Part shown: in pieces, positions 16,796-36,731 of the stretch | Position numbering within the stretch: position 1 is the stretch's first letter | How the letters are laid out: each line of letters opens with the position of its first letter | Assembly (NCBI GenBank): GCA_945865695.1 | Contig: CAMBFX010000003.1 | Span: 1 to 48,303 of the forward strand | Length of the DNA stretch: 48,303 nt | Direction: 5' to 3' | Origin: Chryseobacterium gleum | GTDB taxonomy: Bacteria > Bacteroidota > Bacteroidia > Flavobacteriales_D > UBA2798 | Position numbers and translations under genes: made by a program | Notes under the pieces: generated by a model | What the model was told of the DNA's origin: nothing | The model's input: only the letters and a program-made list of their open reading frames with translations | Databases searched by the model: none

Positions 16796-17918
16796 GTATT
16801 TTTCTTTTAAAGAATTTGAATAAAAAATAAAACAAAATGGGTATAAATATTATAGAAATTCCATACCAAAAGTATCTATGAGTGACCATTTGCCAAACGT
16901 AAAGAGGTGCCAATCGCCAATTGAAACTAGGCTCCTCTGGACGATGATTCTTCCACCAATCCATCGTATATTTTTCAAAAGGAAGTACGACATTACTGTT
17001 CAATGAAAATGTTCGAAAAGAAATTTTTCCTTGTTTGGAGTCTACTAACAAAACCGCATCTCGCGGCAAATCACGAATGGCAGTAGCAATGAACGTGATT
17101 TTTTTATTGTATGGATGATACAAAAAACTAGCAGGTGCATTTCCTAAGGAACCACTGAACAAATAAACTCTTGCATTTTCAGATGCCTTTGCAATCATTG
17201 GAAAAACTTCGTCTTTGAAATTGGTGGCAGTTGCCGATTGCGTATTATCCGGAAATAATTTCATCAAATCTTCATCCATATCTACCCATAAGGTGCGATG
17301 CATGAAAATAAAAATATTTTTAATCCTATTTTCTGTTTTTAAATTCAATTTTAAAAATTCCAATTGGGTATTTCGAATATCCCCATTATCTATTTCGGAA
17401 TCTAAAACAATGAATCGTGATGATCCAATTTCAAATGAATGGAATGTTTTTCCATAATGTGCACGATAAAATTCATTGTCCACATCATGATTACCTACTG
17501 CATTGAGAAGCGGCATCTTTAACTTAGGAAAAAGATATTTTTCATAATTATTATGGTCTCGGTCTACATTTAGAAATAAATCTCCCAAACACATTATGAA
17601 GGCTGCATTCATTCCATTCAATGTATCGATATTCGCCATTAAAGAAGCTGCAGGCATTCCAGAAGTGCTATTGGAGGCTCCATGAAAATGTCCACTTACG
17701 ATAAAACTAAAATCATCTGGGTCTACTAATTTTGATTGATTGTTAAGTTCCGATTCGACTTTATGCCTCACTAATTTTTGATTCCTGATTGAATCAGATT
17801 CATGTATATTACGAATATCAGTTGAATTGAGACCTTGGGTCAATTTACTTTTATCCATCATTTGCGATTTACAACAAATGGCAATAATCAAAAATGATAT
17901 TATCTTAATGTATTTCAT
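16779..17918 (-). CDS. Calcineurin-like metallophosphoesterase, exported, with C-terminal TM anchor
   Basis: GHFHG, LGDL, GNHD, FMH motifs; N-terminal signal/lipoprotein-like IAICC; hydrophobic C-terminal helix followed by a basic tail. Confidence 0.8.
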   Translation of the reverse strand: MKYIKIISFLIIAICCKSQMMDKSKLTQGLNSTDIRNIHESDSIRNQKLVRHKVESELNNQSKLVDPDDFSFIVSGHFHGASNSTSGMPAASLMANIDTLNGMNAAFIMCLGDLFLNVDRDHNNYEKYLFPKLKMPLLNAVGNHDVDNEFYRAHYGKTFHSFEIGSSRFIVLDSEIDNGDIRNTQLEFLKLNLKTENRIKNIFIFMHRTLWVDMDEDLMKLFPDNTQSATATNFKDEVFPMIAKASENARVYLFSGSLGNAPASFLYHPYNKKITFIATAIRDLPRDAVLLVDSKQGKISFRTFSLNSNVVLPFEKYTMDWWKNHRPEEPSFNWRLAPLYVWQMVTHRYFWYGISIIFIPILFYFLFKFFKRKIRAKKI

Positions 17919-21435: not shown

Positions 21436-22741
21436 TTTCGGTTGGTTCTTCAGTTTCTATATTGAAAAGATCTTCAGTTAATAAAGTTACAATAATGAGA
21501 AATAAAATGGTGTAAGGATTCAAAGAGGCCGCTAACCAAGGTTCAAAATTAACAGAAAACATGACGGCGAATAAGGCGGGGAATGCGTAGGTATTATACC
21601 GTGATCCTTTTATAAAAATCAAAATCAAACCACGAAGAAAAGCGAATAGTCCAAACAAACCGGTATTTAACCAAACTATAAGATAAGTATTATGAACACC
21701 ACCTTCATGACCCGATTTACTGAGCATTTCGTAATTCTTTCGCATGAGATTTTCATCATATCCCATTCCTTTACCAATAAAAAAACTATCCTGAATATTT
21801 TTCCAGGCAAATTCCCAAGCAATAAGCCTTCCTGACCCCTCTTCCAAAGTTTCTAATCTTAGGGATTGACTTAAACCTAATGAAATAATAATTTTAGGAA
21901 GATAAATAATAATGACCTCCATTGAAACGAGAATAAGGAAAAAAGCAAGAAATCCAAGGAAGGAAGAATATTTAAAAAGTTGATTGAACCCATAGAACAA
22001 AACAACAGCTAACAATGCGGTTCTGGAACCAGTTTTATATAAAACATAAAACATAATTAGAAAAAGAATAATCTTTTCAGTTCGACTAAACAATTCGGGA
22101 TACTTTGAATTGATAATCGTAAAAAGAATGAAAAACAAAATCATAAAAATCCCAAGTCCGTTTGGATTTCCAAACATACCTCGTAACCTGCCACCGTGTG
22201 AAAATGCTATTTCAGAATTATAAAATCTCATTAAAAAACCAATTATGACTATAGAAAAAAGAAAATACACTAAATTTCTAAGAAAATTAGTTCCATGTTC
22301 ATCATAAGATCTAATTACATAATTGGGTACAGCAATAAAAAGAAGGAAGTAAGAAAGTAATTTCTGAAAAGAAGTTGTAAAAATAGGTGAATACAATAAT
22401 CCAATCAGGGCAAAAATAAAAAACGGAACAAAGTATTGGTATAATTTTACAATCCTTTCCTGTTTCTGCATGGTTATTATTAAGAAAAAAAATAACATCA
22501 GAATATAGATATTCTTGAAGGACTTAGCGAATGACATTTGAATCTCGAGGCTATCGGATAGAATTAAAATAAAAATGAATCCAATGAAAATCTCCTGAAA
22601 ACGATTAGCACTGAAAAGTAGAAAAAGTGAGGCGGGAATGATAAGAAAAACTCCAGGGCCAGTAAAGGCTCCAGCAATTGACCAGATGATAAGAAGCCCC
22701 AACATCTGAAAATTATTTTTCAAAAAATCGGTTGCGATCAT
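21401..22741 (-). CDS. O-antigen ligase/Wzy polymerase family membrane protein
   Basis: Multiple TM helices, RLRGMFGNPNGLG, TGSRTA, SGR...W, G.GMG, HNTY...GLFG. Confidence 0.9.
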   Translation of the reverse strand: MIATDFLKNNFQMLGLLIIWSIAGAFTGPGVFLIIPASLFLLFSANRFQEIFIGFIFILILSDSLEIQMSFAKSFKNIYILMLFFFLIITMQKQERIVKLYQYFVPFFIFALIGLLYSPIFTTSFQKLLSYFLLFIAVPNYVIRSYDEHGTNFLRNLVYFLFSIVIIGFLMRFYNSEIAFSHGGRLRGMFGNPNGLGIFMILFFILFTIINSKYPELFSRTEKIILFLIMFYVLYKTGSRTALLAVVLFYGFNQLFKYSSFLGFLAFFLILVSMEVIIIYLPKIIISLGLSQSLRLETLEEGSGRLIAWEFAWKNIQDSFFIGKGMGYDENLMRKNYEMLSKSGHEGGVHNTYLIVWLNTGLFGLFAFLRGLILIFIKGSRYNTYAFPALFAVMFSVNFEPWLAASLNPYTILFLIIVTLLTEDLFNIETEEPTENEKVETVTEVG

Positions 22742-24291
22742 TTCAAATATTTTTTGATCAGTAAATTCATTTCATTTTCTCTATTCGTAGCAAATGCTTT
22801 TAGAATATCCACTTCTCTATTCCATTCTTCAATAGTAGCCGGCTTTCGCCATCTCTCCGTATGCCTTTGTATAGCTGGGGAAATTTGATTTTCTAAGCTG
22901 CTAATTTTATTCTTTAAATTTGCCCTAGACAAATCTTCGGAAATCATTTTACTGAACTTTTCACGAAGCAATTTGTGAAAATCAGAAGACTCCATTAATT
23001 TACGAAACAATTTACTAAACTCATCCTTTCCATCAAAAAGTCTGGCAAACATATCTTCTGAAACAGCATTTTCTCCGGTATAAGCAAAACCAAAATCCAA
23101 ATCAAAAAAAGCAAAACGCCACTTTGTAGCTGAATTTTTACTATTTGAAATCTTATACATTTTTAAATTATTTGCAGGCCAATCCGAGTTAGCGAAAAAC
23201 AATTGCCCAACCAAATAAGTAGTTAAGTCATCCATGTCAAAAACCGCTAACAATTCAGCATAATTTAATTTAGTAAGATTATCTTTTACTCTTATCAGAT
23301 TCAGAAATTCAGATTCATCACCCGCTTCTAGTGTCCAATTCTCCACAAGGGTCACTTCTTTTTCCTTACATCCAAAACTTTCTGCGATAAAATTCTCATC
23401 AACTCTGTTCTGCAAAAAATGGATTCCCCAATATTCTCCATTGATAAAAACTTCGGAAGGAACGAATCCAGATGTTAGGATTCCTGTTTTCTTAACCAAT
23501 TCTTGCATCAGCATATCCCTAAAAAGCGACTTCGTATTATCATTTCCGCCATTGCGCAAAACCAAAGATTTCAATCCATCACCATTACCGAAGAAATCAT
23601 ATTTGAAGTTTTTATTACCTAAACTTTTCGATGCCGAAAGCCGAATGGATTTTTGAGGAAAAGACCTGGTGGCCTTGCCGCTTATTTCTGCGTAAGCATA
23701 AGAAGAATAAAGAGCTTGTCCTTTGGTGTTGTAATAACTAAAAAATACGTTGCGTTTATCATTCTCTTTACGATAATAATTTGCTGGTTGGGTCCAAGGG
23801 GTGGGATAGCTAACTATTGAAGAAACGAAATCGGCATCAAAGCCCCTTACATAAATTCCGTTACTATATGAAAAAAAATCCTCCGGATGAACAAGGATTG
23901 AAATAATAGGTAGATTTAATTTATAGGGTATAAATAAATTAGAAATCCAACCTTTTGGTGTTGATTTCAAATATTGCAAGGCGCTGATTTCAGAAATAGG
24001 AAATCGCCAATAAGTAGAAGTAATGATTTGACTAATGTTCCCTTGGTAAAAATCTGAATGATTGAAACCACTTCCGATATTGTAACAATATCCGCTCGAG
24101 AAAATAAAATCTTTTTCGTTCAAGCGGCTAGGAACTGAACTAAGCATATTTTCCGATCGAACGATTTTAATATCTTTAATTGGATTGACAGAGTCTGTAA
24201 GATGAAACAAATTACCTGTGTAAAATGAGCATAAACTGGAAATGGTAATAATTACCGAAACAAAAAATAATTCCTTTTTAGAAGAGAGCAT
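22738..24291 (-). CDS. CotH-family kinase
   Basis: G..TR.FPQKS.RL, LVLRNGGND, VFINGEYWG, DWPANN, KWRF..FDLD.GF. Confidence 0.9.
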   Translation of the reverse strand: MLSSKKELFFVSVIITISSLCSFYTGNLFHLTDSVNPIKDIKIVRSENMLSSVPSRLNEKDFIFSSGYCYNIGSGFNHSDFYQGNISQIITSTYWRFPISEISALQYLKSTPKGWISNLFIPYKLNLPIISILVHPEDFFSYSNGIYVRGFDADFVSSIVSYPTPWTQPANYYRKENDKRNVFFSYYNTKGQALYSSYAYAEISGKATRSFPQKSIRLSASKSLGNKNFKYDFFGNGDGLKSLVLRNGGNDNTKSLFRDMLMQELVKKTGILTSGFVPSEVFINGEYWGIHFLQNRVDENFIAESFGCKEKEVTLVENWTLEAGDESEFLNLIRVKDNLTKLNYAELLAVFDMDDLTTYLVGQLFFANSDWPANNLKMYKISNSKNSATKWRFAFFDLDFGFAYTGENAVSEDMFARLFDGKDEFSKLFRKLMESSDFHKLLREKFSKMISEDLSRANLKNKISSLENQISPAIQRHTERWRKPATIEEWNREVDILKAFATNRENEMNLLIKKYLK

Positions 24292-24295
24292 CTTG

Positions 24296-24709
24296 CTATT
24301 TCGACTTATAAAAATACATGCAGGGCAATACCAGAAATAATGTCACCATTGTTGTTAAGAACAGATTTGCAGCTCCACAACCGAATGCAACGAAAATACA
24401 TGTGAGATAAAAAACTTTGGATCGTAATGAAAATCCATCATTTCCGATGACTGGAATCAAGGCCAACAATCCGAACAACACCAGTATCCAAGGAGTTTTT
24501 AGGCTGAAGATGGCAATTGTTGTGAATATAACTTGCATAGGAACCAGATAATTCAGAAAGTGGAATTCATTCGATTCAACATTTCCTTTCTTCCAAAAAT
24601 TACGGATTAGAATTGCCAGTAGTGCTGAAATGGAAAGTTGCAAAAATAAAATAGGCAGGTCCGTTATTGAAAAACCCATCGTTAGCTGTGCTAATAGTTG
24701 TTTGAGCAT
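24296..24709 (-). CDS. Small integral membrane protein, DUF4956/MgtC-like
   Basis: About 4-5 TM helices with FGLLAL and FY...I..AFGCGA pattern recalled from DUF4956 proteins, which often neighbour CotH genes. Confidence 0.55.
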   Translation of the reverse strand: MLKQLLAQLTMGFSITDLPILFLQLSISALLAILIRNFWKKGNVESNEFHFLNYLVPMQVIFTTIAIFSLKTPWILVLFGLLALIPVIGNDGFSLRSKVFYLTCIFVAFGCGAANLFLTTMVTLFLVLPCMYFYKSK

Positions 24710-24800
24710 GATGATTTATTAATACTACGAAAGTACTAAATTTACATAAAATCTCCTGTTTTTATCTTGTTATTAGTATATTTACAATTAAAATTAGTAA
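24710..24800. promoter_or_regulatory. Divergent promoter region
   Basis: 91-bp gap between divergent operons; TACTTTCG (minus, 24728-24735) and TATATTTA (plus, ~24777) resemble TAnnTTTG. Confidence 0.45.
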
Positions 24801-25925
24801 ATGTTACCGCTTCATCTACCATTCATTTCAGGTAAGGAAAAAGAATATGTTGCGGAGGTAATTGATAGCGGTAAACTCTCCGGCAATGGGAAATTTACTA
24901 TGTTATGCCATTCCTATTTTGAAACGAAGCTCGGTTTTAAAAAAGTACTTCTCACCAATTCCTGTACAGATGCGCTTGAAATGTGCGCACTCATTTTGGA
25001 ACTTGAACACGGGGATGAAATCATTTTACCCTCTTATACTTTCGTAACAACAGCAAATGCCTTTTATAACTATGGAGTAATTCCTGTTTTCTGTGATTCG
25101 ATGAAAGATGATCCAAATATTGACCCCCTTCAAATGGAAAGAAAAATTACCTCAAGAACTAAAGCTATTGTGGTAATGCATTATGCCGGTATTTCATGTG
25201 AAATGGAACAAATTTTGGCTATTGCGAAAAAACACTCGCTTTATGTGATTGAGGATTCCGCATTAGGATTGGGAAGCACTTACAACAAAAAACCACTTGG
25301 TAGCCTAGGTGATTTAGCTACTTTTTCTTTTCATGAAACCAAAAACATCAGCTGTGGTGAAGGAGGTTTATTAGTAATTAATAATGAAAAACTTATCCAA
25401 AAAGCAGAAATAATCTGGGAAAAAGGAACGAATAGAGCGGCCTATCTTAGAGGTGAATTCAATAAATATGAATGGATATCCAAAGGATCTTCTTTTCTTA
25501 CTTCCGAAATCCATGCCGCCTTTTTATTTGGTCAACTTCAAAATTTCGATTACATACAGCTGAAAAGGAATGAAATTTGGAATACTTATCAAAAAGCTTT
25601 TGAAGGATTTAAAAAAATTACCCTTTCCAATCCAGGTTCAAATAAAGAAGTGAACGGTAGTGTTTTTCACTTTATTTTCGATGAGCCCGCCAATAAAGAA
25701 ACATTTATCCAATTTATGAATTCTCATCATATTACTGTTTCGAGCCATTATAGGTGTTTGCACTCAAGTAATTTTGGGAAAAGTAAATTTAAATGCGCAA
25801 AATTGATAAATTGCGAAAAAATTGAATCGACCTTAATCAGATTTCCAATTTATGTTAGCCTACAATTTGAACAACAACAATTAATCATCAAAAAAACACT
25901 TGATTTTTTTAAAGCAATTGAATAA
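24801..25925 (+). CDS. wecE: dTDP-4-amino-4,6-dideoxygalactose transaminase (DegT/DnrJ family)
   Basis: SGNGKFT, SCTDALEM, PSYTFVTTANAF, HYAG, FSFHETKNISCGEGG (PLP Lys), EKGTNR, GSSFL.SE. Confidence 0.9.
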   Translation: MLPLHLPFISGKEKEYVAEVIDSGKLSGNGKFTMLCHSYFETKLGFKKVLLTNSCTDALEMCALILELEHGDEIILPSYTFVTTANAFYNYGVIPVFCDSMKDDPNIDPLQMERKITSRTKAIVVMHYAGISCEMEQILAIAKKHSLYVIEDSALGLGSTYNKKPLGSLGDLATFSFHETKNISCGEGGLLVINNEKLIQKAEIIWEKGTNRAAYLRGEFNKYEWISKGSSFLTSEIHAAFLFGQLQNFDYIQLKRNEIWNTYQKAFEGFKKITLSNPGSNKEVNGSVFHFIFDEPANKETFIQFMNSHHITVSSHYRCLHSSNFGKSKFKCAKLINCEKIESTLIRFPIYVSLQFEQQQLIIKKTLDFFKAIE

Positions 25926-25926
25926 T

Positions 25927-26835
25927 ATGAAAATTTTAGTAACTGGAGGAGCAGGTTTTATTGGGAGCCACTTAGTAAAAGCATTGGCTGATGCAGGACA
26001 TAAAGTAGTTGTAGCCGATATACTACTAAGGGGCAATAAAATTGATCAAGAAACTTTTTCGAAAATTGATTTTCACAAATCTGATGTCAAAGATATCAAG
26101 GCAATGATAGAATTATCAAAAGGATGTGGATTGATTTTTCATTTTGCTGCAGTTCTAGGTGTAGATGTAGTAGCTGATAATCCCGTTGAAACAATGGATA
26201 CGGAAGTGATTGGGATGAGAAATATTACCGAGGCAGCATTGATTAATGGAATTGATAAAATTATTTATGCCTCCACTAGTGGAATTTATGGCCATTCTGC
26301 CTTAAATCAAACAGTAACTGAAACTATTTCTGTAGATCCAAGAACTAGTTATGCTATTGCAAAACGATATAACGAAATTTATCTTGGAGCATTGAATGAT
26401 GAAAAAGGTTTGAATTCTATTTCACTTCGTTTTTTTAATGTTTACGGACCCGGGCAAGATAATCGAATGGTTGTTCCTCGATTCATTGAGCAAGCAAAAG
26501 TCAATGAAGCTATTACCGTGTTCGGAGAAGGAAAACAAACCCGTGATTTCACTTACATTGATGATGCAATCAAATCTTGTATGCTTCTGATGGAGCATGT
26601 TCAGGGAGCCGAAATTTATAACATCGCTCATGAAAGGGAAATAAATATTCTTGAATTAGCAGAGGCAATTAAAAAAACATTTGAAAGTAAATCAGAAATT
26701 AAATTTGTTGAAGCCCCTAAGAAAAGATATGATTATGAGGTTGGGAGAAGATGGGGAAATTCTGAAAAACTTTTTAAAAGGATTAATTATAAACCTAGCA
26801 CTTCATTAGAAATAGGTTTAAGAAAAATTTCGTAA
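25927..26835 (+). CDS. NAD-dependent epimerase/dehydratase
   Basis: TGGAGFIG, YAIAK (YxxxK), RFFNVYGP, QTRDFTYI; ATG 25927. Confidence 0.93.
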   Translation: MKILVTGGAGFIGSHLVKALADAGHKVVVADILLRGNKIDQETFSKIDFHKSDVKDIKAMIELSKGCGLIFHFAAVLGVDVVADNPVETMDTEVIGMRNITEAALINGIDKIIYASTSGIYGHSALNQTVTETISVDPRTSYAIAKRYNEIYLGALNDEKGLNSISLRFFNVYGPGQDNRMVVPRFIEQAKVNEAITVFGEGKQTRDFTYIDDAIKSCMLLMEHVQGAEIYNIAHEREINILELAEAIKKTFESKSEIKFVEAPKKRYDYEVGRRWGNSEKLFKRINYKPSTSLEIGLRKIS

Positions 26836-26892
26836 TTCAAATCCAAAAATCAATTTTCACAATTTGGTTGAATTTAATATCATCAAATATTA

Positions 26893-26923
26893 TTTGAGTT
26901 TTGACGATTTTAAATTAAATTTG
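26893..26923 (+). promoter_or_regulatory. Bacteroidota primary-sigma promoter (-33/-7)
   Basis: TTTG (26893-26896) - 19 nt - TAAATTTG (26916-26923), an exact match to TTTG-N19-21-TAnnTTTG. Confidence 0.75.
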
Positions 26924-26926
26924 AAC

Positions 26927-28552
26927 GTGATTTTAAGCCCGATAATTAAATTAGCCTATAAGTGCTTTCCTTTCCTGTTCCTTACAATAGGACTAAATGC
27001 GCAATTGCATATCAAAAGTGGCACGAGTTTACATATTTCAACCAATACCGTATTAAATATTGATATTCCATCTCAAAATTTTATCATTGATTCTGGAGCA
27101 TTCGTCATAAACGATGGAAAAATAATTTTAGGTGATTCAACCGATATCGATGAATTTTTAAATTATCCGATCATTGGACTTGGCACCGAAATGACGAGCC
27201 GCAACCTTAATCAATTATTGGGAGGAATAAATATTGGGGGGTTAGGTGTTGTATTTAATGATGATTACATTACTGGCATAACCACTTTGACTAGAGGACA
27301 TAATTATTTTACAATAACCGGTATTCAAGAATCGATTAAACGATGGTTTCATATTTCAACCACAGGAACTTTTCCAACAGGTTATTCTTTAACTTTAAAT
27401 TATGATTCTACTGAATTAAATGGAAATTATGCTCAACAGAACCGAGTCATAAGCACCAACGATACCACCCAAACTTGGACCTCTTTAGGTGGACTTGCCA
27501 ATGATACATTATTCAATGCAACGGCAACAATGGGTTCAGACCATTTTTATTCTATTCTATCTACTGGTATCAGAATTACATCCATTAATGATTCCATTTT
27601 TTGTGTTGGCGATTCATTACAAGTTGATTTTGCAGTAAACGGATTATTCAATTTCAATAATAATTTCGTCCTCCAAGTTTCCAATGAAAATGGCTCTTTT
27701 GCCGCACCCGTTTTACAGGATACAATTGCTACCGATACAATAAACTTCAACGTATCATTACCCTTACTTTTAACTGAGGGTGCAGGATATAAAATCAGAA
27801 TCATATCCACCAATCCTTTTATTTCTTCGGAATATTTAGACATCACCATTTACGAATTGCCTGTTATCAATGTGACGAACCTAAATAATCAATATTGCTC
27901 TAACGAATCTCCATCTGATATTGGAATAGTTCCATATGGTGGAGTTTATGATGTGAATTTTTTATTGAACGATTCTATTTATCCTACCATCGCTTCAATT
28001 GGTATGAACACATTCACCTATACTTTTACTTCCATTAACGGCTGTACTTCTATGTATGCCGATTCCACAGAAATTATTCCGGCCCCTGCAATACCTCTAA
28101 TCTATCTTTCCAACGACACTTTATTTTCGTCCTCTTTAAGCAACAACCAATGGTATCTTGATGGAAATATGATAACAGGCTCCAACGATTATTATATAAT
28201 TCCTGATTTTAACGGAATTTATGAAGTAGAAGTAACCAACTCCGGATGTTCAAGCATTTCAGATACCTTTTCATTCAACACACTTGAAATCGGAAAACAA
28301 TTAAACAATCAAATAATTGAAATTTATCCTAATCCTGCCTTTGATAATTTCATAACAATAAATACAGAAGAAAATAAAACCGAAATTAAAATAGAAATTT
28401 TCGATTCTCAGGGTAAATTTGTTTTTTCTACTAATGAAATTTCAAAGTCGGAAAACAAGATTGATATTACATCCTTGAGCTCAGGTATTTTTTTCATTCA
28501 TATTTTCACAGGGTCTGAATTTTTTATTAAGAAATTAGTAATTGTAAAATGA
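26927..28552 (+). CDS. T9SS type A sorting domain-containing secreted protein (Ig-like modules)
   Basis: C-terminal IYPNPA...IFDSQGK...IDITSLSSGIFFI...KKLVIVK; signal ...LTIGLNA|Q. GTG 26927 is the likely start (track starts at TTG 26864). Confidence 0.9.
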   Translation: MILSPIIKLAYKCFPFLFLTIGLNAQLHIKSGTSLHISTNTVLNIDIPSQNFIIDSGAFVINDGKIILGDSTDIDEFLNYPIIGLGTEMTSRNLNQLLGGINIGGLGVVFNDDYITGITTLTRGHNYFTITGIQESIKRWFHISTTGTFPTGYSLTLNYDSTELNGNYAQQNRVISTNDTTQTWTSLGGLANDTLFNATATMGSDHFYSILSTGIRITSINDSIFCVGDSLQVDFAVNGLFNFNNNFVLQVSNENGSFAAPVLQDTIATDTINFNVSLPLLLTEGAGYKIRIISTNPFISSEYLDITIYELPVINVTNLNNQYCSNESPSDIGIVPYGGVYDVNFLLNDSIYPTIASIGMNTFTYTFTSINGCTSMYADSTEIIPAPAIPLIYLSNDTLFSSSLSNNQWYLDGNMITGSNDYYIIPDFNGIYEVEVTNSGCSSISDTFSFNTLEIGKQLNNQIIEIYPNPAFDNFITINTEENKTEIKIEIFDSQGKFVFSTNEISKSENKIDITSLSSGIFFIHIFTGSEFFIKKLVIVK

Positions 28553-29379
28553 GAATCCTATTAACCCTATCGTTTTTATGCTTGATAGTTTCGAGTGCTA
28601 TCGGACAGGTTGAATCATCAAATTCTATACTCTTCATTGATACTATAGCGTCAAATAATTTAGTAAAAGGAATAAAATCTGTCGAGTCTAAAAATGATGG
28701 AATAAATGTTTCCACACTTGTTTCCGGTCAATCGAATTATTCAAACGCAATAGGAACAAATAATCTTAGTGTCACTTTACCTTTTTCACCTTCAATTATC
28801 GAAGGATTCATAATTAATTTTAAGGTTCAAAATACCAACACAGATAGTATTTCACTTTCGGTTAATGGATCTAACAGTTATTCCGTTATTAAAAATTCTG
28901 GATTCCCAATTGATTCAGCACAATTTCAACCCGGACAAATTGTATCTGTTATTTTTAATGGAAATAAATTTGTTACATTAAGTAAATTATACAAACCCTG
29001 TAAAAAAGGTTTTGTATCTGTAAACGATGAGTTTTGTATTGATTCATTGCCAAGAAACATTTCAAGTTTCTTTCCCGCAGTTCAGAATTGTGGTAACGAT
29101 GATGCAATGTTATGTACCTGGAATCAATGGTATATTGCTTGCAATGATTCTTTAGCCAATGGTTCCTCCGGTTATCTTACCAATTTCGAATGGGTAAATG
29201 ATGCTGGAAATAATGGAGCTGATGCCAAAGTTGCGGGATATAATAACGATAATGCTTATTTAGGTTATGGGTGCAAAAAAAGTTATTCTTTGCCAACTAC
29301 TTTCACTTCGCTGAATTCGGCTACTGTAACCTCTGGAAACACTGTGAATATTCGTTATAGATGCTGTTATCGCAAATGA
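28549..29379 (+). CDS. Secreted Cys-rich protein, paralog 1 (tail-fibre-like domain + FGE/C-type-lectin-like domain)
   Basis: Signal ...SSAIG|Q; FKVQNTNT...VNG...GQ.VSV.FNG; CKKGFVSVNDEFCI...LCTWNQWYIAC...NFEW...YRCCYRK. Confidence 0.8.
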   Translation: MRILLTLSFLCLIVSSAIGQVESSNSILFIDTIASNNLVKGIKSVESKNDGINVSTLVSGQSNYSNAIGTNNLSVTLPFSPSIIEGFIINFKVQNTNTDSISLSVNGSNSYSVIKNSGFPIDSAQFQPGQIVSVIFNGNKFVTLSKLYKPCKKGFVSVNDEFCIDSLPRNISSFFPAVQNCGNDDAMLCTWNQWYIACNDSLANGSSGYLTNFEWVNDAGNNGADAKVAGYNNDNAYLGYGCKKSYSLPTTFTSLNSATVTSGNTVNIRYRCCYRK

Positions 29380-30143
29380 AAAAAATAATTTACATATCAA
29401 TTTACATTTTTTCGCTGATTCAAGCAGAGGCTCAAGTAACTATTGATCATAAATTAATCATGACATCGCTTGATTCAAACGAACGAATCATCTCTGGAAT
29501 TTCTGCTGCAATTGACACTAGTGATTTAGTGCCAGTAACTGATTTAATCGATAATAGATTATTATTTTCGAGCGTTAATGGCAATGATAGTCTTCTATTA
29601 AATATACCCATGCAATATGAGTTAAATGAAGGAATGGGATTTTGGATTTCTCCTATTACTAATTCAGCAAATGCAACAATGATAACTCTTAATCAATTAA
29701 ATTATTTTCCCTTAAAAGATATCAATCAATCCAACGAAACCAATTGTTTAAAATCAAATGAAATAGAATGGATAATTTATGATGGTACTTCGTTTCAAGA
29801 AATATTTGAAGGATTCAAAACTTGTCCAACTGGTTATGTTGATGTGAATACAGAATATTGCATCCAAACAAACGAAAACACAGCGGCTAATTACTGGAAT
29901 GCTATTCAAGTTTGCGAAACAGATGGCGCAAAATTATGTAGTTGGGGTGAATGGTATTTTGCTTGTCAAAAAAGTGGATTGGGTCTATCAAATATGATTA
30001 ATAATTGGGAATGGACTGAATCTGCGAATAATCATGCTACATCAGTGCTTGCTCTTGGAAATGGAAGTTGTACAACTGCCGGAGAAAGCAATACACAAGT
30101 AGTAACTGTAAAAACTTATCGTTGTTGTTATAGAAAAAAATGA
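29376..30143 (+). CDS. Secreted Cys-rich protein, paralog 2
   Basis: ATG 29376 (ATGA overlap), signal ...QAEA|Q; CPTGYVDVNTEYCI...LCSWGEWYFAC...NWEW...YRCCYRKK. Confidence 0.8.
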   Translation: MKKIIYISIYIFSLIQAEAQVTIDHKLIMTSLDSNERIISGISAAIDTSDLVPVTDLIDNRLLFSSVNGNDSLLLNIPMQYELNEGMGFWISPITNSANATMITLNQLNYFPLKDINQSNETNCLKSNEIEWIIYDGTSFQEIFEGFKTCPTGYVDVNTEYCIQTNENTAANYWNAIQVCETDGAKLCSWGEWYFACQKSGLGLSNMINNWEWTESANNHATSVLALGNGSCTTAGESNTQVVTVKTYRCCYRKK

Positions 30144-30925
30144 AAATTCTTTTTTACATATCGTTTTCAGTCATTCAAATTATTTCGTGTGCTTATGATA
30201 GCTATGCACAAATAAGTCTATCGAAACCATTAATTTTAACTTCTGGGGGCGATTCTGCGAAAGTGGAAAATTTATATACACCCAATGAATTGAATGCAGG
30301 CTTAACAGTAGGATCTGTACAATCCAACCGATTTCTATATGCAACATCAACAGGAACCGACAGTATTTTTTTAAATTTATCTGTAGCACCTGATTCGCTA
30401 ATTTCAGGGCTGGTGATATATTTCAAATCGCAGGGAACAAATACGGATTCTGTTCATGTAACATTAGATAACACTAATTATTTTCCACTTTATAAAAACA
30501 TTAATCTTCCCCTTAAATCTGATGATATTCAATCAGGGCAAATGCTAGCAATTGGATTTGATGGAAATCATTTTCAATATTTGAATTATGAAAATAATGA
30601 TTGTCCTCCAGGATTTCTTGCCGTTACTTCTGAGTATTGCATTGAGATAAATGAGAGTGTGATTGAATTACCTTATTATGATGCCCTAATAGATTGCTAT
30701 TCTAAAAATGCGCGTATGTGTAACTGGGGGGAATGGCATTATGCCTGTGCAAGCATGGGTGCAAGCATTAGTAATATGACCAATAATTGGGAATATACAG
30801 ACGATGCCGGTAATGAAGTGAATATGGTGAGAATTTGCGGAAATGGAAGTTGTACAGCCTCCGGATTGCAGAACATTCCAGTTAATTTACCAAAAAAACA
30901 CCGCTGTTGTTATTCTAGAAAATGA
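30140..30925 (+). CDS. Secreted Cys-rich protein, paralog 3
   Basis: Signal ...DSYA|Q; CPPGFLAVTSEYCI...MCNWGEWHYAC...NWEY...HRCCYSRK. Confidence 0.8.
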   Translation: MKILFYISFSVIQIISCAYDSYAQISLSKPLILTSGGDSAKVENLYTPNELNAGLTVGSVQSNRFLYATSTGTDSIFLNLSVAPDSLISGLVIYFKSQGTNTDSVHVTLDNTNYFPLYKNINLPLKSDDIQSGQMLAIGFDGNHFQYLNYENNDCPPGFLAVTSEYCIEINESVIELPYYDALIDCYSKNARMCNWGEWHYACASMGASISNMTNNWEYTDDAGNEVNMVRICGNGSCTASGLQNIPVNLPKKHRCCYSRK

Positions 30926-32253
30926 AAATTTTCATTCATCATATCTTTATTTTTCTTTTTTTTCTTTGCCAATTATCAACGAAAGCAGAAATTAATTCTA
31001 AACCTGTAAAGTTGATTGGCAACCTAAAATCAAAATCTTTCGGACATAAAAAAATTCACATTTCCTCCTTTTATGGTACACAATTAATTCTTCTAGATTC
31101 AACTGTATCCGATAAAAATGGAACTTTTAAATTCCAGTTGAAAATTCCTAATCAATCGGGATATTACAGATTATCTATCGGTTCAACAAATTATACGGAT
31201 ATCATTTTATCACCAGGAGAAAATCCAATTATTGATTTTGAAAATGGCGAACTCAAGAATTGGCTGCAAGTGAAAAACAGCCATGAAAATAAAGCAATAC
31301 TTGAAAGTAGAATTATTTCCAAAAAGGCTGATTCAAAAACAACTATTTACAACGAACTGGTAAAAATTGCAAATGATTATCCTAATACATTTTTTTCCAA
31401 AACTACATTAGCCTATCTGCCTTATGAATATTTTTTGCCAGATACCTTTAGCTCCCCAGAAAAAAAAATAATCCATATTCAAAATCATTATTTCGATAAA
31501 GTTGATTTCAGTACCAACGAACTGATGTATTCTACATTACTACCTAATATTTTCATGCGGTATCTTGAAAATTACACTCAGTATGATGAAGAAGGATTTA
31601 AAGCGTCGGTTGATATTATTATGAAAAAAGTGAGCGTGAATGAGGACATCAGTGCTTTTACCTTAGATTTTCTTATTCAACTTTTTAAAAAAGTAGGGCC
31701 TGAAATAATTTTAGAATATGTAATTGAAAATTACTATTTCGTCAACTCATGTGGAGATTCAAAACAGTTCAATCAAGAAACTATACAAATCATTAAAGAT
31801 TACGGCAACCTTTCCGAAGGCAATATTGTTCCCGATTTCTATTACCGTGAATTCAATTGGGAAAATAACACATTCTCCGATTCTACCTCAATATATAAAT
31901 TGTGTGAAAAGAATAAATTAGTTCTTCTTGTATTTTGGTCATCCCATTGCCAATTCTGCGCCTTAAAATCTATTTTTTGGAATGAATTATTTGATCGCTA
32001 CGATAAAAAAGGATTGGAAATAATTTATATTTCACTCGACTCCGAAATAAACGATTTGACTAACGGTATCCGAGAAAAAAAACTGAACGGAAAACATGTT
32101 TGCGACTTCAATGGATGGCAAGGATCTATCGTACAAAAATTGAAAATAAACAGAACACCTTATCTGGTTTTATTATCGAACGAAGGAAAAATAATTTTGA
32201 AAGATAAAGGAGATCAACAAATCAATTCGTATCTCTCCAATTATCTTGATTGA
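30922..32253 (+). CDS. Exported TlpA-like thioredoxin-fold protein (DUF5106-like middle domain)
   Basis: Signal peptide, HYFDKVDF helical region, PDF...LLVFWSSHCQFC, I.YISLD, TP..VL...GKI. Confidence 0.85.
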   Translation: MKIFIHHIFIFLFFLCQLSTKAEINSKPVKLIGNLKSKSFGHKKIHISSFYGTQLILLDSTVSDKNGTFKFQLKIPNQSGYYRLSIGSTNYTDIILSPGENPIIDFENGELKNWLQVKNSHENKAILESRIISKKADSKTTIYNELVKIANDYPNTFFSKTTLAYLPYEYFLPDTFSSPEKKIIHIQNHYFDKVDFSTNELMYSTLLPNIFMRYLENYTQYDEEGFKASVDIIMKKVSVNEDISAFTLDFLIQLFKKVGPEIILEYVIENYYFVNSCGDSKQFNQETIQIIKDYGNLSEGNIVPDFYYREFNWENNTFSDSTSIYKLCEKNKLVLLVFWSSHCQFCALKSIFWNELFDRYDKKGLEIIYISLDSEINDLTNGIREKKLNGKHVCDFNGWQGSIVQKLKINRTPYLVLLSNEGKIILKDKGDQQINSYLSNYLD

Positions 32254-33361
32254 TTTTTATAAATAAATCATGATGCATTTTAGCCAATTTTTTCCAAGTA
32301 AATCCTTCTGCCACTTTTTTCCTGGAGTTTTCTCCTAATATTTTCTTTTTATCCGATTTCAATAAAGAAAAATCTTTTAGGGCATCACAGACCGCTGCTG
32401 CGTCATTTCGTTGTATCAAATAACCTGTTTCTTGGTTTATTAATTCTGATGTGCCACCAACATCTGAAACAATCACCGGTAATCCGAACGACATTGCCTC
32501 CAGAACCACGGTAGGCATTCCTTCAAATAAAGTTGGTAACAAAAAAACATCTGCTTCTAAATATTTTTGCTTCAATTCTTCATCCGATAGAAATCCTAAC
32601 AACTCAACATGGTGAAATGAATTGTTTTTTTTATAATATTCGAACAAAGGCCCCTTACCTCCGAGCATGAAATGAAAAGAGGAACTTTCTTTTTCATTAG
32701 CTAATTTTTGTACTGCATCAAAAAGAATATGAATACCCTTATTTTTGACAAAACGCGCCATAAAAAAAACTTTGATAGGCTCACCTGAGTCTTGGTAGTG
32801 CAATTTGAATTCGGTTGGTAATTCAACTGCGTTGGGTAAAAAAACTATTTTATCCGCAAATCCATTTTTCTTTAAAATATCCGTGAGATGACCGCCTTCG
32901 GAAGCTATATATTTTGAATTCTTAAAAATTTTGCGTTGAATCGTTTTAAATAAAAAACCAATTAGCTTTTCTTTAAATCCAATGGCTTGAAATGATTCTA
33001 AGCCATGTGGATTATTAATTAGAATTCGTTTAAATCTTTTTGCATTTTTCCATACTGTTAAACCTTGCGCATAAATTATATCTGGTTTAATTCTATCTAA
33101 TTCTTCCGAAATTCGTTGCGAATATTTATAGGTTTCCAACAGATAATTTCTAGAAATCTGTATAGGCTTAATAAAATGTTCAATAAGATTTACGTCTTGA
33201 AAAACTTCAAAATCGTGAGGATGCAGAATGTGTATTTCTAAATCTTGGTAATTTGCAAGTTCACGTAAAAGTAATGCAGAATGTCGTTGAATTCCTCCTA
33301 TTGAATGTGGAAAAATTCCATCGGTGCAAAAGGCGATTTTTATTTTTGTTCCTTCAGCCAT
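32222..33361 (-). CDS. Glycosyltransferase family 4
   Basis: GGIQRH, PNAV, ARFVKNKG, PTLFEGMPTVVLEAMSFGLPVI.SDVGG. Confidence 0.94.
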   Translation of the reverse strand: MAEGTKIKIAFCTDGIFPHSIGGIQRHSALLLRELANYQDLEIHILHPHDFEVFQDVNLIEHFIKPIQISRNYLLETYKYSQRISEELDRIKPDIIYAQGLTVWKNAKRFKRILINNPHGLESFQAIGFKEKLIGFLFKTIQRKIFKNSKYIASEGGHLTDILKKNGFADKIVFLPNAVELPTEFKLHYQDSGEPIKVFFMARFVKNKGIHILFDAVQKLANEKESSSFHFMLGGKGPLFEYYKKNNSFHHVELLGFLSDEELKQKYLEADVFLLPTLFEGMPTVVLEAMSFGLPVIVSDVGGTSELINQETGYLIQRNDAAAVCDALKDFSLLKSDKKKILGENSRKKVAEGFTWKKLAKMHHDLFIKINQDNWRDTN

Positions 33362-34242
33362 TGTGTGGTCTTTTCAATACCCTTCAAAATTGAATGAGTT
33401 GGTGCATAACCCAGTTTTTGAATATTACTTATGTCTGCGCGCCAATTAGAAGGATCTCCATCTCTACCCGATCCAGAAAATTTGCAAGACAATTCGTTTG
33501 AAATATTCTCACAAAACAATTTTGAAACATATTCGATTGAAATTTCTTCCCCGTTCGCAATATTATAATAAGACAATATTTTTTCATTGGTAAAAGCAAT
33601 CAATCGTATGGCTTCAAATAAATCATCGATATAAATAAAATCTCTTGTTTCCTTACCTGAACCAAACATTTCAATACAATTTGAAAGTCGACTTTTTCGA
33701 TACATATCCCAAAATATTTGTTTTTTCAATCCAGGTCCATAAGCAGAAAAAATTCGAAGTGAAGTGGCCTCCATTCCAAAATAATTTCTGAATTGATTAA
33801 CGATCATCTCACTCATCAATTTATGATTACCATAGGGAGAAATTGGATGAGCTTCTGCCGTCTCGCTAATTGGAAGTGACGATGGATTACCATAAACTGC
33901 GGCGCTAGATAAATTAATGAATCTAGTTCCGGAATGATTTTTCCATAATTCATTTAAAATTCTAAAAACAATTCTAGTATTCAATTCATAATCCAAGAAG
34001 GGATTTTCAAATGAATAAGGAACCGATGCAGAGCCTGCACAATTGATACAAATATCATATTTGTGGGAGAATATTTCATCCGGAGAATTTTCAAGTAAAG
34101 TATGATTAAAAAATCGTTTGAGCGTTTTAATTTCCGGACTTTGTATATCACATCCATAGACATCATGGCCTAACTCCAGAAATTTTTGAGTGAGCGAGGA
34201 TCCGATAAATCCATTGCATCCGAAAATCAAAATACTTTTCAT
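33340..34242 (-). CDS. NAD-dependent epimerase/dehydratase
   Basis: GCNGFIG, SSAAVYG, YGNHK, LRIFSAYGP, ETRDFIYI. Confidence 0.93.
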   Translation of the reverse strand: MKSILIFGCNGFIGSSLTQKFLELGHDVYGCDIQSPEIKTLKRFFNHTLLENSPDEIFSHKYDICINCAGSASVPYSFENPFLDYELNTRIVFRILNELWKNHSGTRFINLSSAAVYGNPSSLPISETAEAHPISPYGNHKLMSEMIVNQFRNYFGMEATSLRIFSAYGPGLKKQIFWDMYRKSRLSNCIEMFGSGKETRDFIYIDDLFEAIRLIAFTNEKILSYYNIANGEEISIEYVSKLFCENISNELSCKFSGSGRDGDPSNWRADISNIQKLGYAPTHSILKGIEKTTQWLKEQK

Positions 34243-35426
34243 TTGTTTTTTATCTCCTTTACAATCGCTGTAATCTTTGCCGCCACGTGTTGCCAGGTAA
34301 AATTAGAAATAATCTTGTTATGAAAGCCTCTTCCCAATCTTTCCCTCAAAGCTGAATCATCCAATAGCTTAATAATCGCGTCTGATAAGTCATTTGGTCC
34401 TTTATCAATCAATATTCCGTCAATTCCATCCTGAAGTACATCTTTCAAAGGTAAATAATTGGGGGCAATTACAGCTTTACTATGTAAACCGTACTCAAAT
34501 ATTTTAATTGGTGAACCATACCAATTGCTATCTGGCATAACGGTGATTTCCATTTTTCGAATAAAACTATGAACGTATCGATGCTCCACCGATCCTACCC
34601 AGATAATACAATGATCTAAACCCAACTGAGTTGATTTCTGTTTATAGTGTTGAAGATTCTGTCCTCCTCCAACAATCAAAAAAATAAAATCACTTCGCTT
34701 TTTTGATAAAATTTCTGCGGCATCAATCAATCTATCGATTCCATGCCAAGGAGCAATTGATCCAACAAATCCAATTATAATTTTTTCAGATGGTAAAGAA
34801 ATAGTTTTGGGTAGAACAAAATCTTCATTCAATGAGGAGTTATCGACAGCATTTGGAATTACAACTATTTTTTCAGCACAAATGGGTAGTTTTTTTGCGA
34901 AATATTCTTTTAATGCAGTCGATACAACGATTAGGCTAGAAGTGAGCTTGAGGTATTCTATTTCACGCTTTCTTGCACGTTTCATCAATAATGATTTTCC
35001 TTGCAGCACTACTCTTTCCTCTGTGAAAGGAGAATTGATTTCTGCAATATGGGTTACTTTTTTATTTTTACAAGCCAACACTCCTGATAATTGAAAATAA
35101 TTCGCTCTTTCATATACAAAATCGGGTAGAAATTCTGAAATTCTTTTTTCAAGTTGCTTTTGAATGCTTATGTCTGCTCGCCATAAACTTAAATCCTTCA
35201 AAGTCTCCCAAATAACGGCAGGTAATAATCGTTTGATAAAAAAATATTTACCTTTTGTTGTGATTTGAGATGGCTTGTCAATGGTTTTTTCTCCTCCTAC
35301 AATGAATGTTTCTACCGTATGACCTTCTTTTCGCAACGCTTCAATTACCTTTCTCATATGTGTAGCATAGCCCGCCTGGTCGTTTAAGCCTAAAAAGGGA
35401 TGAGGTGAAAAATATAAAATTCTCAT
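34239..35426 (-). CDS. Glycosyltransferase family 4
   Basis: IPNAVD, GFVGSIAPWHG, GSPIKIFEY. Confidence 0.93.
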   Translation of the reverse strand: MRILYFSPHPFLGLNDQAGYATHMRKVIEALRKEGHTVETFIVGGEKTIDKPSQITTKGKYFFIKRLLPAVIWETLKDLSLWRADISIQKQLEKRISEFLPDFVYERANYFQLSGVLACKNKKVTHIAEINSPFTEERVVLQGKSLLMKRARKREIEYLKLTSSLIVVSTALKEYFAKKLPICAEKIVVIPNAVDNSSLNEDFVLPKTISLPSEKIIIGFVGSIAPWHGIDRLIDAAEILSKKRSDFIFLIVGGGQNLQHYKQKSTQLGLDHCIIWVGSVEHRYVHSFIRKMEITVMPDSNWYGSPIKIFEYGLHSKAVIAPNYLPLKDVLQDGIDGILIDKGPNDLSDAIIKLLDDSALRERLGRGFHNKIISNFTWQHVAAKITAIVKEIKNK

Positions 35427-36076
35427 TCTAGCTCCTTTTTAAAAATATCCGCTAATTGCTTGGTAAGAATTTGCGGACTAAAATTATTCTTGATAAAATC
35501 CAAGTCAGCTTTATACAACTTGTTCAATTCATTTTTATTTTCAATCAGAAATTTTATTTTCTCAGCAATATTTTCTGCATCCATTGGATTACAAATAATT
35601 CCTAAACCAGATTTCAACAATAACCGGGAGCACTCCGATTCAGCACAGAGTGCAAGAATCGGTTTTTCGGACTTAAAATATTCAAACATTTTTCCAGGAA
35701 GCGCATATGGTTCATGATTATCCACTCCTCTTTCTAGAGGAAGAAACAACAAATCTGTATTTAACAATTTTTCCAAGGACTCTTGTTTAGTTAAATAACC
35801 TGATATTTTCACCAAGCTATTAATACCCATTTTATCCGATTGAATCTTATTTGCAGAATCAATCAGCCCCCATAAATGAAGTTCAACTCTATCTTTCATT
35901 TCTGGATATTTTTCTATGAAACATTTCAGTCCATTAAAAATAAAATAAGCTGAACGAGTATCTGGATTGTTGATTGAATAATTCCTGAATGTGAATAATT
36001 TATTCTTATAGGGAAAAGCAGGATCAAAACAGGCAAGGCTGCCGCTATATGAAATAATCAATTTATCAGTAGCCAT
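35423..36076 (-). CDS. GT4 glycosyltransferase, C-terminal (donor-binding) Rossmann half only
   Basis: ISYSGSL, GYL...ESL...DLLFLP, PGKMFEY....KPILA. Confidence 0.85.
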   Translation of the reverse strand: MATDKLIISYSGSLACFDPAFPYKNKLFTFRNYSINNPDTRSAYFIFNGLKCFIEKYPEMKDRVELHLWGLIDSANKIQSDKMGINSLVKISGYLTKQESLEKLLNTDLLFLPLERGVDNHEPYALPGKMFEYFKSEKPILALCAESECSRLLLKSGLGIICNPMDAENIAEKIKFLIENKNELNKLYKADLDFIKNNFSPQILTKQLADIFKKELE

Positions 36077-36731
36077 TGTAAATTATATCTATTTTCTGTT
36101 CCGTTCCAATTCCCTTATTCAAAAAAAGCTTTTTCATTTCAGAAGTAACAACAATTATACGATCTGCTTTATTTAATATTTCTTTTTCCAACAAAACATT
36201 TTTTTTCCAATGGGATTCTGATGGCCAATGCCAAGTGAAGGCGTCTGTCCATGGATCCCTAAGGTCAGCAATCCATTTTACTTTTGCTTCTCTTTTCAAT
36301 CTCTCCGCTAATAAAAGTGCTGAAAAAGGAGCGGAAGAAGTGTATACTATTTTTATATTTTCTTTTTTAATAATATCCAAAGCAACCTCAAATGATTTCT
36401 CTGCCCAAACTAATGAAGGCTCCCCATTTTTTCTATAAAAAAGGTATCTGTAAAGTCCATATAATCTAAATTTCATTAGAAAGTTTCGTCTACGAATTCG
36501 TTCATTTGAATTCACTCGAATAATTTTAAGATGAGCTGGTAAATTTTCCATCAATGACTCATCCAATGGATAATTTCCGCTATGAATAGATTCGAGATCT
36601 TGTGTGAGAACAATAGGTTCAAATGCATTATCTCTGAGATGTGATACAAATCGAACTGAACGATGCACGCCAGGACCTCCTTGGGGAGGAAACTGATAAG
36701 CGATAAACAAAACTGGTAAACGATTCACCAT
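36066..36731 (-). CDS. GT4 glycosyltransferase, N-terminal Rossmann half only
   Basis: IAYQFPP.GGPGVHR, TSSAPFS, WIADLRDPW, ends IIYNGY*. Confidence 0.85.
   Translation of the reverse strand: MVNRLPVLFIAYQFPPQGGPGVHRSVRFVSHLRDNAFEPIVLTQDLESIHSGNYPLDESLMENLPAHLKIIRVNSNERIRRRNFLMKFRLYGLYRYLFYRKNGEPSLVWAEKSFEVALDIIKKENIKIVYTSSAPFSALLLAERLKREAKVKWIADLRDPWTDAFTWHWPSESHWKKNVLLEKEILNKADRIIVVTSEMKKLFLNKGIGTEQKIDIIYNGY

Follow-up and report, generated by a model that had tools for sequence, protein, structure and literature searches.

A three-paralog cassette for a possible lectin-tipped fibre beside a type IX secretion cargo gene in a Bacteroidota glycan locus

Introduction

The use of phage-like trimeric fibres by bacteria was recognised recently in the mosaic adhesive trimer (MAT) fibres of Bdellovibrio bacteriovorus, and here we describe a five-gene cassette that would extend this idea to the Bacteroidota. 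The cassette lies at positions 26927–32253 on the forward strand of contig CAMBFX010000003.1, within the window analysed (the whole stretch of 48,303 nt), and encodes a putative cargo of the type IX secretion system (T9SS; gene 1), three paralogous cysteine-rich proteins (paralogs 1, 2 and 3) and a thioredoxin-domain protein resembling TlpA (gene 5). Our overall reading, to which we give even weight for and against, is a lectin-tipped fibre of three different chains that is associated with a T9SS stalk protein, in a locus for a decorated glycan.

The closest described structure is the C-terminal tip of the MAT fibre Bd2740 (8OKS), reported as a trimeric tip of C-type-lectin (CLec) fold without a Ca2+ site, on a phage-like fibre encoded on a bacterial chromosome (PMC10769870). 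It is the best structural match to the paralogs, yet shares just 15% sequence identity with them. MAT fibres are presented in that source as homotrimers of ~1000 aa, some with an S74 domain (PMC10769870), whereas the proteins here are 255–276 aa long and come as three paralogs, with four predicted disulfides per tip and with T9SS cargo and TlpA genes as neighbours, in Bacteroidota. Membership in the MAT family was considered and rejected on the basis of these lengths and the lack of a Peptidase_S74 match in Pfam, as only the tip fold is common to both. The N-terminal domain of the paralogs finds its counterpart in Pa193 gp47 (PDB 9B45), a ‘beads-on-a-string’ trimeric tail fibre of a Pseudomonas myophage, for which residues 1–340 are reported as an AlphaFold model fitted to density (PMC11042391). 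Residues 56–154 of the modelled paralog correspond to one bead (gp47 residues 220–339); here, however, the bead is single and sits in a cellular protein bearing a signal peptide, with no baseplate genes nearby.

The CLec fold is shared with two proteins of diversity-generating retroelements (DGRs), Mtd of a Bordetella phage (1yu0, Z 10.3), which is a trimeric fibre tip, and TvpA of Treponema (2y3c, Z 10.5), and also with Lcl of Legionella (8Q4E), a secreted trimeric adhesin and the second-best match of the C-terminal domain (Z 11.8, root-mean-square deviation (rmsd) 3.6, 111 aligned residues). The ligand of Lcl is given as a sulfated glycan (PMC11162425), and sulfotransferase genes are present in the locus described here. 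Lcl differs in its collagen stalk and homotrimeric make-up, and the tips here, taken as a whole, are acidic to neutral. Precedent for a fibre built from three different chains comes from the tail of the freshwater virophage DSLV2, in which three consecutive tail genes are described as giving one heterotrimeric, lipopolysaccharide-binding fibre (PMC12724248); compared by its description only, that fibre is viral and gp37-like and is presented without a link to the T9SS or a thioredoxin.

To such systems the cassette would add a fixed three-paralog make-up (probably a heterotrimer), a dedicated thiol-disulfide oxidoreductase and strict co-inheritance with a T9SS cargo. Two further analogies are looser. 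Complement C1q is likewise a heterotrimer from three tandem paralogous genes with a stalk and a globular recognition head, but it comes from animals, and its stalk is collagen and its head TNF-like. The rbm genes inside the vps locus of Vibrio cholerae encode secreted polysaccharide-binding scaffolds and are comparable for a tethering role only, as their folds and secretion system are unrelated to those of the cassette.

An earlier note on this DNA had put the cassette forward as a candidate new system, and no characterised system was found to match it in Pfam or NCBIfam (searched for the paralogs), in PHROG or PADLOC (searched for all five proteins) or in the literature. The literature search, which combined T9SS with C-type lectin, tail fiber, sulfated polysaccharide, thioredoxin or heterotrimer and had most subscription journals outside its scope, returned no such cassette. 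The parts are of known kinds, namely phage-like bacterial fibres, CLec tips, T9SS cargo and TlpA; what the libraries and literature searched do not describe is the fixed three-paralog composition, its coupling to genes for a thioredoxin and a T9SS cargo, and two unnamed domain families.

Domain architecture of the three paralogs

Paralogs 1 (28549..29379, +, 276 aa), 2 (29376..30143, +, 255 aa) and 3 (30140..30925, +, 261 aa) share one predicted architecture: a signal peptide, a tail-fibre bead domain and a C-type-lectin-fold tip with eight Cys. Paralog 1 carries in addition two lineage-specific insertions, paralog 2 a His at the predicted tip interface that is invariant for its gene position, and paralog 3 was chosen for structure modelling. 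The sequences are diverged, paralogs 2 and 3 being 25% and 31% identical to paralog 1. Nevertheless, the eight Cys columns are invariant in all 35 aligned family members, as is a C-terminal R-C-C that is followed by Y or F in >90% of them, and in 32/35 the hydrophobic signal at the N-terminus closes with a small residue, after which comes Q. The signal peptide, N-terminal domain and eight Cys that the earlier note had seen as common to the three middle genes were thereby confirmed; the phage tail-fibre nature of that N-terminal domain had escaped it.

A profile of the three paralogs, compared with PDB sequences, matched Pa193 tail fibre gp47 over residues 39–138 (9B45, E 5e-4) and, weakly, 8OKS over residues 149–235 (E 0.18). 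The AlphaFold2 model of paralog 3, built from 35 sequences, had a pLDDT of 76, with residues 20–63 below 50. Its residues 152–261 superposed best on 8oks_B (Z 12.8, rmsd 2.4, 103 aligned), followed by Lcl, TvpA, Mtd and dozens of animal C-type-lectin-like domains (CTLDs), while residues 56–154 matched 9b45_2 (Z 8.7). At Z of at least 8 there were 65 representative chains, and among the 50 matches listed those to CTLDs span residues ~150–261. Foldseek gave probability 1.00 against many CTLDs and E values of 8e-5 (Pa193 gp47 bead) and 2e-4, and the predicted viral structures of BFVD contained 72 matches to the N-terminal domain at E<=1e-3, several of them annotated as tail fibres. On the model, the C-terminal domain has the C-type-lectin fold, and by sequence and modelled fold the N-terminal domain is a phage tail-fibre bead of the Pa193 gp47 type, the trimer of which is also predicted. 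By this reading, every paralog starts with a signal peptide and an N-terminal segment, which a single bead and a lectin-fold tip with four predicted disulfides follow.

No Pfam or NCBIfam family covers the three paralogs, no PHROG or PADLOC match was obtained for any of the five proteins, and paralog 3 had no tblastn match in 50,697 phage records. Profiles for the C-terminal domains (CTDs) that direct proteins to the T9SS were also searched: the paralogs and gene 5 had no match to PF18962 or TIGR04183 at E<=1, nor did the paralogs to CHU_C or to type B/C T9SS CTDs at the same threshold. Each paralog ends with the lectin-fold domain.

The tip is conserved rather than hypervariable, with the motif NM(T)NNWEW kept across all three paralog positions. 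Direct repeats of at least 40 nt in 24000–34000 comprised only the paralogous NMxNNWEW segment, with no template/variable repeat pair, and no reverse transcriptase family was found among the window open reading frames (ORFs) scanned, hence a DGR variable protein of the Mtd/TvpA kind was ruled out.

Potential glycosylation sites were also noted. The motif D-[ST]-[AILVMT], which is the O-glycosylation motif of Bacteroidota, occurs 2.9 times per paralog (28549–30925, family alignment) against 0.74 in shuffled sequences, and a site at residue 74 of paralog 3 (DSI) is kept in 23/35 members. The fibre itself may hence be glycosylated.

Distribution and age of the triplication

We searched 401 genomes of the order and a separate sample of 401 genomes from across the phylum. 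In the order, 11/401 genomes matched the paralog family at E<=1e-20. Exactly three adjacent full-length copies were present in each of the ten genomes with full-length members (10/10), which span four families, whereas the eleventh has the bead only, inside a 586-aa ORF. In the genome studied here the family consists of these three copies alone. The phylum-wide sample held the triplet in this same genome only, with one other genome carrying the bead in a 1306-aa ORF. Triplet-free relatives (G028, loci L011 and L019; G200, L031; G483, L032) have the bead only, in ORFs of 586–1306 aa.

The gene order is as conserved as the copy number. A TlpA homolog lies directly downstream of the triplet in 9/9 other loci and a gene-1 homolog upstream in 8/9, seven by tblastn and one (G048) by profile (E 2.2e-32), the latter with a weak CTD (20.8 bits). 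The ninth locus (G058) is cut off by the end of its contig, 386 nt past paralog 1. The order of T9SS cargo, paralogs and TlpA, the conservation of which the earlier note had asked for in support of its proposal, is therefore kept wherever the contig extends far enough. Furthermore, a profile of the gene-1 N-terminal domain (N-domain) gave strong matches (E<=2e-32) in 9/401 genomes of the order, every one of which has the triplet and, next to it, a single copy of the domain. Another 11 genomes gave weak matches only (E 4e-20 to 5e-6), seven of them inside ORFs of 1100–1500 aa, and one of two such proteins examined is a PKD-rich T9SS cargo. Among the 401 genomes of the order, the close N-domain subfamily of gene 1 is thus inherited strictly with the triplet.

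In a maximum likelihood tree of 24 paralogs from eight genomes, the deep branches of which are unresolved, with four rows long-branched and monophyly of the positions not shown, no fork unites two paralogs of one genome. Where pairs are resolved, they unite copies from one gene position in different genomes and families; L022 and L026, for instance, pair in this way at each of the three positions (support 100/99, 98/96 and 82/88). The labels for gene position required six changes on the tree against a shuffled mean of 11.8, and none of 200 shuffles was as low. As the paralogs group by gene position and not by genome, the triplication is old, and three positions kept for so long, never more or fewer, argue for three non-redundant roles.

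Beyond these genomes, a library of 1.84 billion proteins yielded 332 cluster representatives at E<=1e-30, mostly of 245–285 aa, and 18,729 matches to the family profile at E<=1e-3. Long metagenomic proteins in this set repeat the bead 3–14 times and contain no Pfam families. In six of them (P0017, P0026, P0070, P0080, P0124 and P0139; 491–2368 aa) a bead of ~95 residues occurs 4–14 times, again with no Pfam family, with a unit consensus of approximately Y.ITL.P...Y..GM...F.AN..NTGA.T.N.N.LGAK.I.K.....L...DI...Q...V.YDG..FQL. Judged by sequence, the bead is an unnamed and very common tail-fibre repeat. Naming the paralog, bead and gene-1 N-domain families would annotate many ‘hypothetical’ genes, as the paralog family counts 332 clusters in metagenomes and the bead occurs in thousands of proteins. 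One library protein with two family stretches (P0016, 486 aa) was considered as a natural fusion and is read instead as a frameshift or gene-call artefact, because its first half lacks the last Cys block and the signal peptide of its second half is internal.

A predicted trimer of the paralogs

Mature paralogs 1, 2 and 3 were predicted as a three-chain complex, each with a ten-genome alignment in matching genome order. The 1:2:3 trimer scored ipSAE values of 0.80, 0.80 and 0.79, against 0.29 for the best control (paralog 1 replaced) and 0.00 twice where a partner was replaced by unrelated proteins. Runs agreed in at least 95% of contacts, with partner pLDDT of at least 89. The predicted interface spans the full protein length, including residues 24–67; residues 20–63 are thus of low confidence in the monomer model yet part of a confident trimer interface, as expected of an intertwined fibre. 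The paralog chains are accordingly predicted to form a trimer.

Some residues distinguish the three positions. The nine most position-specific alignment columns are all interface columns, the top one (z 10.3) containing H220 of paralog 2 (~30033–30035). This residue is His in 10/10 position-2 paralogs and Asn at positions 1 and 3, and its column lies in the predicted tip interface, where the His may provide the trimer axis with an asymmetric site for a metal or ligand.

Gene 1 and the T9SS

Gene 1 (26927..28552, +) consists of a signal peptide, a conserved N-domain (27002–27571), an immunoglobulin (Ig)-like beta-sandwich stalk and a T9SS type A CTD (28322–28543). The CTD scored above the cut-offs of both Pfam PF18962 (58.5 bits, cut-off 27) and TIGR04183 (51.9 bits, cut-off 23), which upholds the earlier observation that gene 1 has such a domain and the three middle genes have none. 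An AlphaFold2 model from eight sequences is an all-beta chain of sandwiches, and its CTD superposes on substrate CTDs bound in the T9SS translocon (8glk_D, Z 10.2, rmsd 2.2, 74 aligned). Reading from the GTG at 26927, the protein begins with a basic n-region, a hydrophobic core and NAQ|L, in the manner of a Sec signal peptide, and the Q of this NAQ is invariant in 8/8 homologs. The T9SS itself, judged from SprA and CTD matches, is present in the genome: SprA_N matched a 2466-aa ORF (E 6.5e-164) and there were 140 CTD matches, 138 of them over the cut-off. By its CTD, its Sec signal and the presence of the machinery, gene 1 is identified from sequence as a T9SS type A cargo.

The stalk resembles Ig-like chains in a generic way. 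The top Foldseek matches were to the grappling-hook protein GhpA with TM scores of 0.13–0.16 and count as generic Ig chains. In whole-protein fold searches the matches listed were taken up by the Ig-like domains and the CTD (residues 211–541), leaving the N-domain without a fold assignment; it has no Pfam or NCBIfam model either, and an ESM Atlas search with it was uninformative, the best score (0.89) coming from unnamed clusters. The N-domain appears to be the part of gene 1 that matters, because two short homologs (295–297 aa) retain the N-domain and the CTD only. The CTD is over the Pfam cut-off in 6/8 homologs, with the short forms just under it (25.7 and 20.8 bits).

Gene 5, a TlpA-like oxidoreductase

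Gene 5 (30922..32253, +) combines DUF4369, DUF5106 and a TlpA/ResA-like thioredoxin domain with the CxxC motif CQFC. All its Pfam matches exceeded their cut-offs (Thioredoxin_8 50.4 bits, AhpC-TSA 31.5, Redoxin 31.2, DUF4369 30.9 and DUF5106 28.1). The CxxC is kept in 8/8 aligned syntenic homologs, as is a [TV]P loop (8/8), and the protein has an N-terminal hydrophobic segment. From its fold family, CxxC and cis-Pro loop, gene 5 is assigned as an exported thiol-disulfide oxidoreductase of the TlpA/ResA kind; with 42.3 bits against the NCBIfam ResA model (subfamily cut-off 170) it falls outside ResA proper. Eight invariant Cys per chain mean that a trimer needs 12 disulfides, a demand that an oxidoreductase dedicated to the paralogs and coupled to them in translation would suit. 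Whether its role is indeed to form or proof-read fibre disulfides we consider evenly balanced, and it may act as an oxidase, an isomerase or a reductase.

Proposed function and alternative explanations

We propose that the cassette builds a short fibre. The paralogs would be exported by Sec and cleaved by signal peptidase I, each chain contributing an N-terminal intertwining segment, one bead and a tip with four disulfides. The three chains would most likely assemble 1:1:1 in the periplasm as one heterotrimer, and the coupled TlpA-like oxidoreductase would most likely form or proof-read the 12 disulfides of that trimer. Gene 1, with a T9SS-exported N-domain on an Ig-like stalk, would be the carrier or surface anchor of the fibre, an attachment that we suggest tentatively and with some doubt. 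At the cell surface, the conserved tip would recognise a ligand that is itself conserved, a glycan being the most plausible kind. Our favoured candidate would be the sulfated, methylated and acylated polysaccharide of the locus itself, with capsule or matrix tethering as the outcome, although as a specific choice it is rather unlikely to be right. In its most detailed form, a tagless mini-fibre of three different chains (ABC) would dock via its intertwined N-termini on the gene-1 N-domain, cross the T9SS folded and then tether the cell’s own sulfated polysaccharide; that all of this would hold is very unlikely.

If the fibre rides on the T9SS cargo, the cassette would offer a tractable case for T9SS export of complexes, and a folded fibre carried by gene 1 would be the first ‘piggy-back’ T9SS substrate. 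If it binds the glycan of the locus, it would be a candidate capsule or matrix tether in freshwater Bacteroidota.

Several observations weigh against this proposal. The paralogs lack both a CTD and a conserved lipobox, hence no known pathway would carry them through the outer membrane. For gene 1, confidence in the model is only moderate (pLDDT 67), and the N-domain is without a fold assignment. The Ca2+/sugar motifs of C-type lectins proper are EPN/QPD and WND, and these occur in 0/35 and 1/35 family members. The earlier description of the paralogs as lectin-like therefore stands for the fold, with Z 12.8 to the Bd2740 tip, and fails for the canonical motifs, so that ‘lectin’ is here a statement on fold and not on ligand. 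Median net charges of -3.3, -3.2 and 0.0 make the tip domains acidic to neutral, which disfavours electrostatic binding of a sulfated glycan as in Lcl; a basic tip was considered for such a ligand and rejected, as basic residues occur only at the very end (RCCYxK). TlpA-family proteins are usually reductants, not oxidases. The RNA contigs described below are possibly DNA carry-over, with strand and level not shown. The trimer prediction used its own ten-row alignments and three chains, unlike the calibration of its score mark, which was reached by 58/80 solved complexes and 2/110 mismatched pairs. Furthermore, complex prediction cannot separate a heterotrimer from three homotrimers, and close cousins of a true partner also pass, hence the possible heterotrimer of the earlier note gained a predicted 1:1:1 trimer (0.80 versus 0.29) while hetero- and homotrimers were not told apart.

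This blindness of the prediction leaves room for three separate homotrimeric fibres of different specificity that are merely co-expressed, as would suit paralogs that are just 25–31% identical and whose solved relatives are described as homotrimeric, both Bd2740 (PMC10769870) and Pa193 gp47 (PMC11042391). Independent binders should vary in number, however, whereas the copy number is three in 10/10 genomes with positional orthology across four families, and the NM(T)NNWEW motif common to all positions gives no sign of diversified specificity. The four-base gene overlaps suit equal dosage. In addition, position-specific residues lean towards the interface: over 234 alignment columns, 97 of them interface and 117 non-interface, the median z was 1.40 at the interface and 0.96 elsewhere (one-sided Mann–Whitney p 0.018), an enrichment that counts as modest support for a heterotrimer, dropping to p 0.098 on variable columns and coming from related sequences that are not independent. 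On balance we lean towards a heterotrimer and regard co-expressed homotrimers as somewhat improbable. A different possibility is that the fibre remains periplasmic and assists synthesis or export of the locus polysaccharide, be it as chaperone, ruler or scaffold, with gene 1 an independent surface protein. The paralogs, with Sec signals but neither CTD nor lipobox, would be at home there, the cassette sits among glycan-synthesis genes in all loci examined, and TlpA-like proteins act in the periplasm. This is nevertheless distinctly unlikely, as the sources drawn on here present tail-fibre beads and trimeric CLec tips solely as extracellular binding devices and the strict co-occurrence of the gene-1 N-domain with the triplet is hard to explain if the two act apart.

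If the fibre does reach the surface, it could instead serve to adhere to foreign targets (glycans from algae or particles, other cells or prey), in which case its presence among glycan genes would reflect co-regulation of surface structures and nothing more. The closest solved tip, Bd2740, belongs to fibres described as recognising prey (PMC10769870), the gene-1 stalk resembles the Ig chains of GhpA, if generically, and the organism comes from lake and freshwater metagenomes. We consider this unlikely, because the tip is conserved and not variable and the glycan-locus neighbours are kept across families, with a sulfotransferase gene inside the cassette in one locus. The phage tail-fibre module in the paralogs might also suggest the remains of a prophage or tailocin in decay, or genes that adjoin by chance and share no function. 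This is scarcely credible and, given the synteny, close to refuted: there are no phage structural genes among the window ORFs of at least 100 aa scanned, PHROG and the 50,697 phage records gave no match, all reading frames are intact and the five-gene order is kept in four families.

Gene order and expression

The earlier note had described five same-strand genes coupled by overlapping stop and start codons, and the coordinates agree: all five are on the + strand and the four junctions are ATGA, with the stop overlapping the next start, exactly at 28549, 29376, 30140 and 30922. The promoter it had placed in front of them fared less well. The motif TTTG-N19-TAAATTTG, a Bacteroidota-type promoter consensus, is present at 26893..26923 (+), but a relaxed pattern (TTTG-N17-21-TANNTTTG) occurs three times in the window against 4.17 expected, with at least three in 79/100 shuffles, which is no more than chance. 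Moreover, the motif ends 3 nt upstream of the GTG at 26927, so that a transcript starting from it would have almost no leader. Gene 1 has in-frame TTG alternatives at 26864 and 26921, and the GTG is required to encode its signal peptide. Owing to its chance-level frequency and its clash with the start codon, the motif was set aside and is treated as unproven as a promoter. The operon may instead be transcribed by read-through from the same-strand sugar genes at 24801–26835. These are a DegT/DnrJ-type aminotransferase gene (24801–25925, +) and an NAD-dependent sugar epimerase/dehydratase gene (25900–26835, +), either of which may share a transcript with the cassette. At the other end, a convergent glycosyltransferase gene of family GT4 (32222..33361, −) overlaps the end of gene 5 by 32 nt.

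Near-identical cassette DNA is present in lake and freshwater metagenomes. Two freshwater RNA libraries each contained four short contigs (151–228 nt, 99–100% identical), which cover the upstream sugar genes (25056–26445), gene 1 and paralogs 2 and 3, one of them bridging the junction of paralogs 1 and 2. None fell on gene 5 or most of the window, although the absence of a contig says nothing. As a sign of expression these contigs are a weak hint at best.

The surrounding glycan locus

The polysaccharide locus that the earlier note had seen on both sides of the cassette is indeed there, extending from ~10.7 kb to the window end. Its genes include GT1, GT2 and GT4 glycosyltransferases, a Wzy_C polymerase/ligase, an MBOAT acyltransferase, two sulfotransferases, several methyltransferases, an AsnB-type amidotransferase, a deacetylase and two CotH kinases, the last being CotH-kinase-domain proteins at 17915–20401 (−) and 22738–24291 (−).

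Parts of this neighbourhood recur elsewhere. An epimerase homolog (68–99% identity) lies within 5 kb of the cassette in 4/7 other loci (L021, L022, L024 and L026), and a GT4 homolog (45–97% identity) is beside or near the TlpA gene in L021, L022, L023 and L026. In L026 (G031) a 252-aa sulfotransferase (9316–10074, −; PF13469, 49.3 bits) is encoded between the gene-1 homolog and paralog 1. Beside the cassette, 24296–24709 (−) encodes a 137-aa membrane protein with no Pfam family; small ORFs resembling it, compared by eye and unaligned, were seen near the cassette in L021, L022, L023 and L026.

Two other features of the window were noted. At 35423–36731 (−), overlapping ORFs form the two halves of a GT4 enzyme (Glyco_trans_4-like at 36066–36731 and Glycos_transf_1 at 35423–36076), a pattern that a frameshift, a split gene or an error of assembly would each explain. 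Unrelated to the cassette, three ORFs of the RhuM family, one fused to a Fic/DOC domain, lie at 2080–6041 between dnaE and two M16 peptidase genes.

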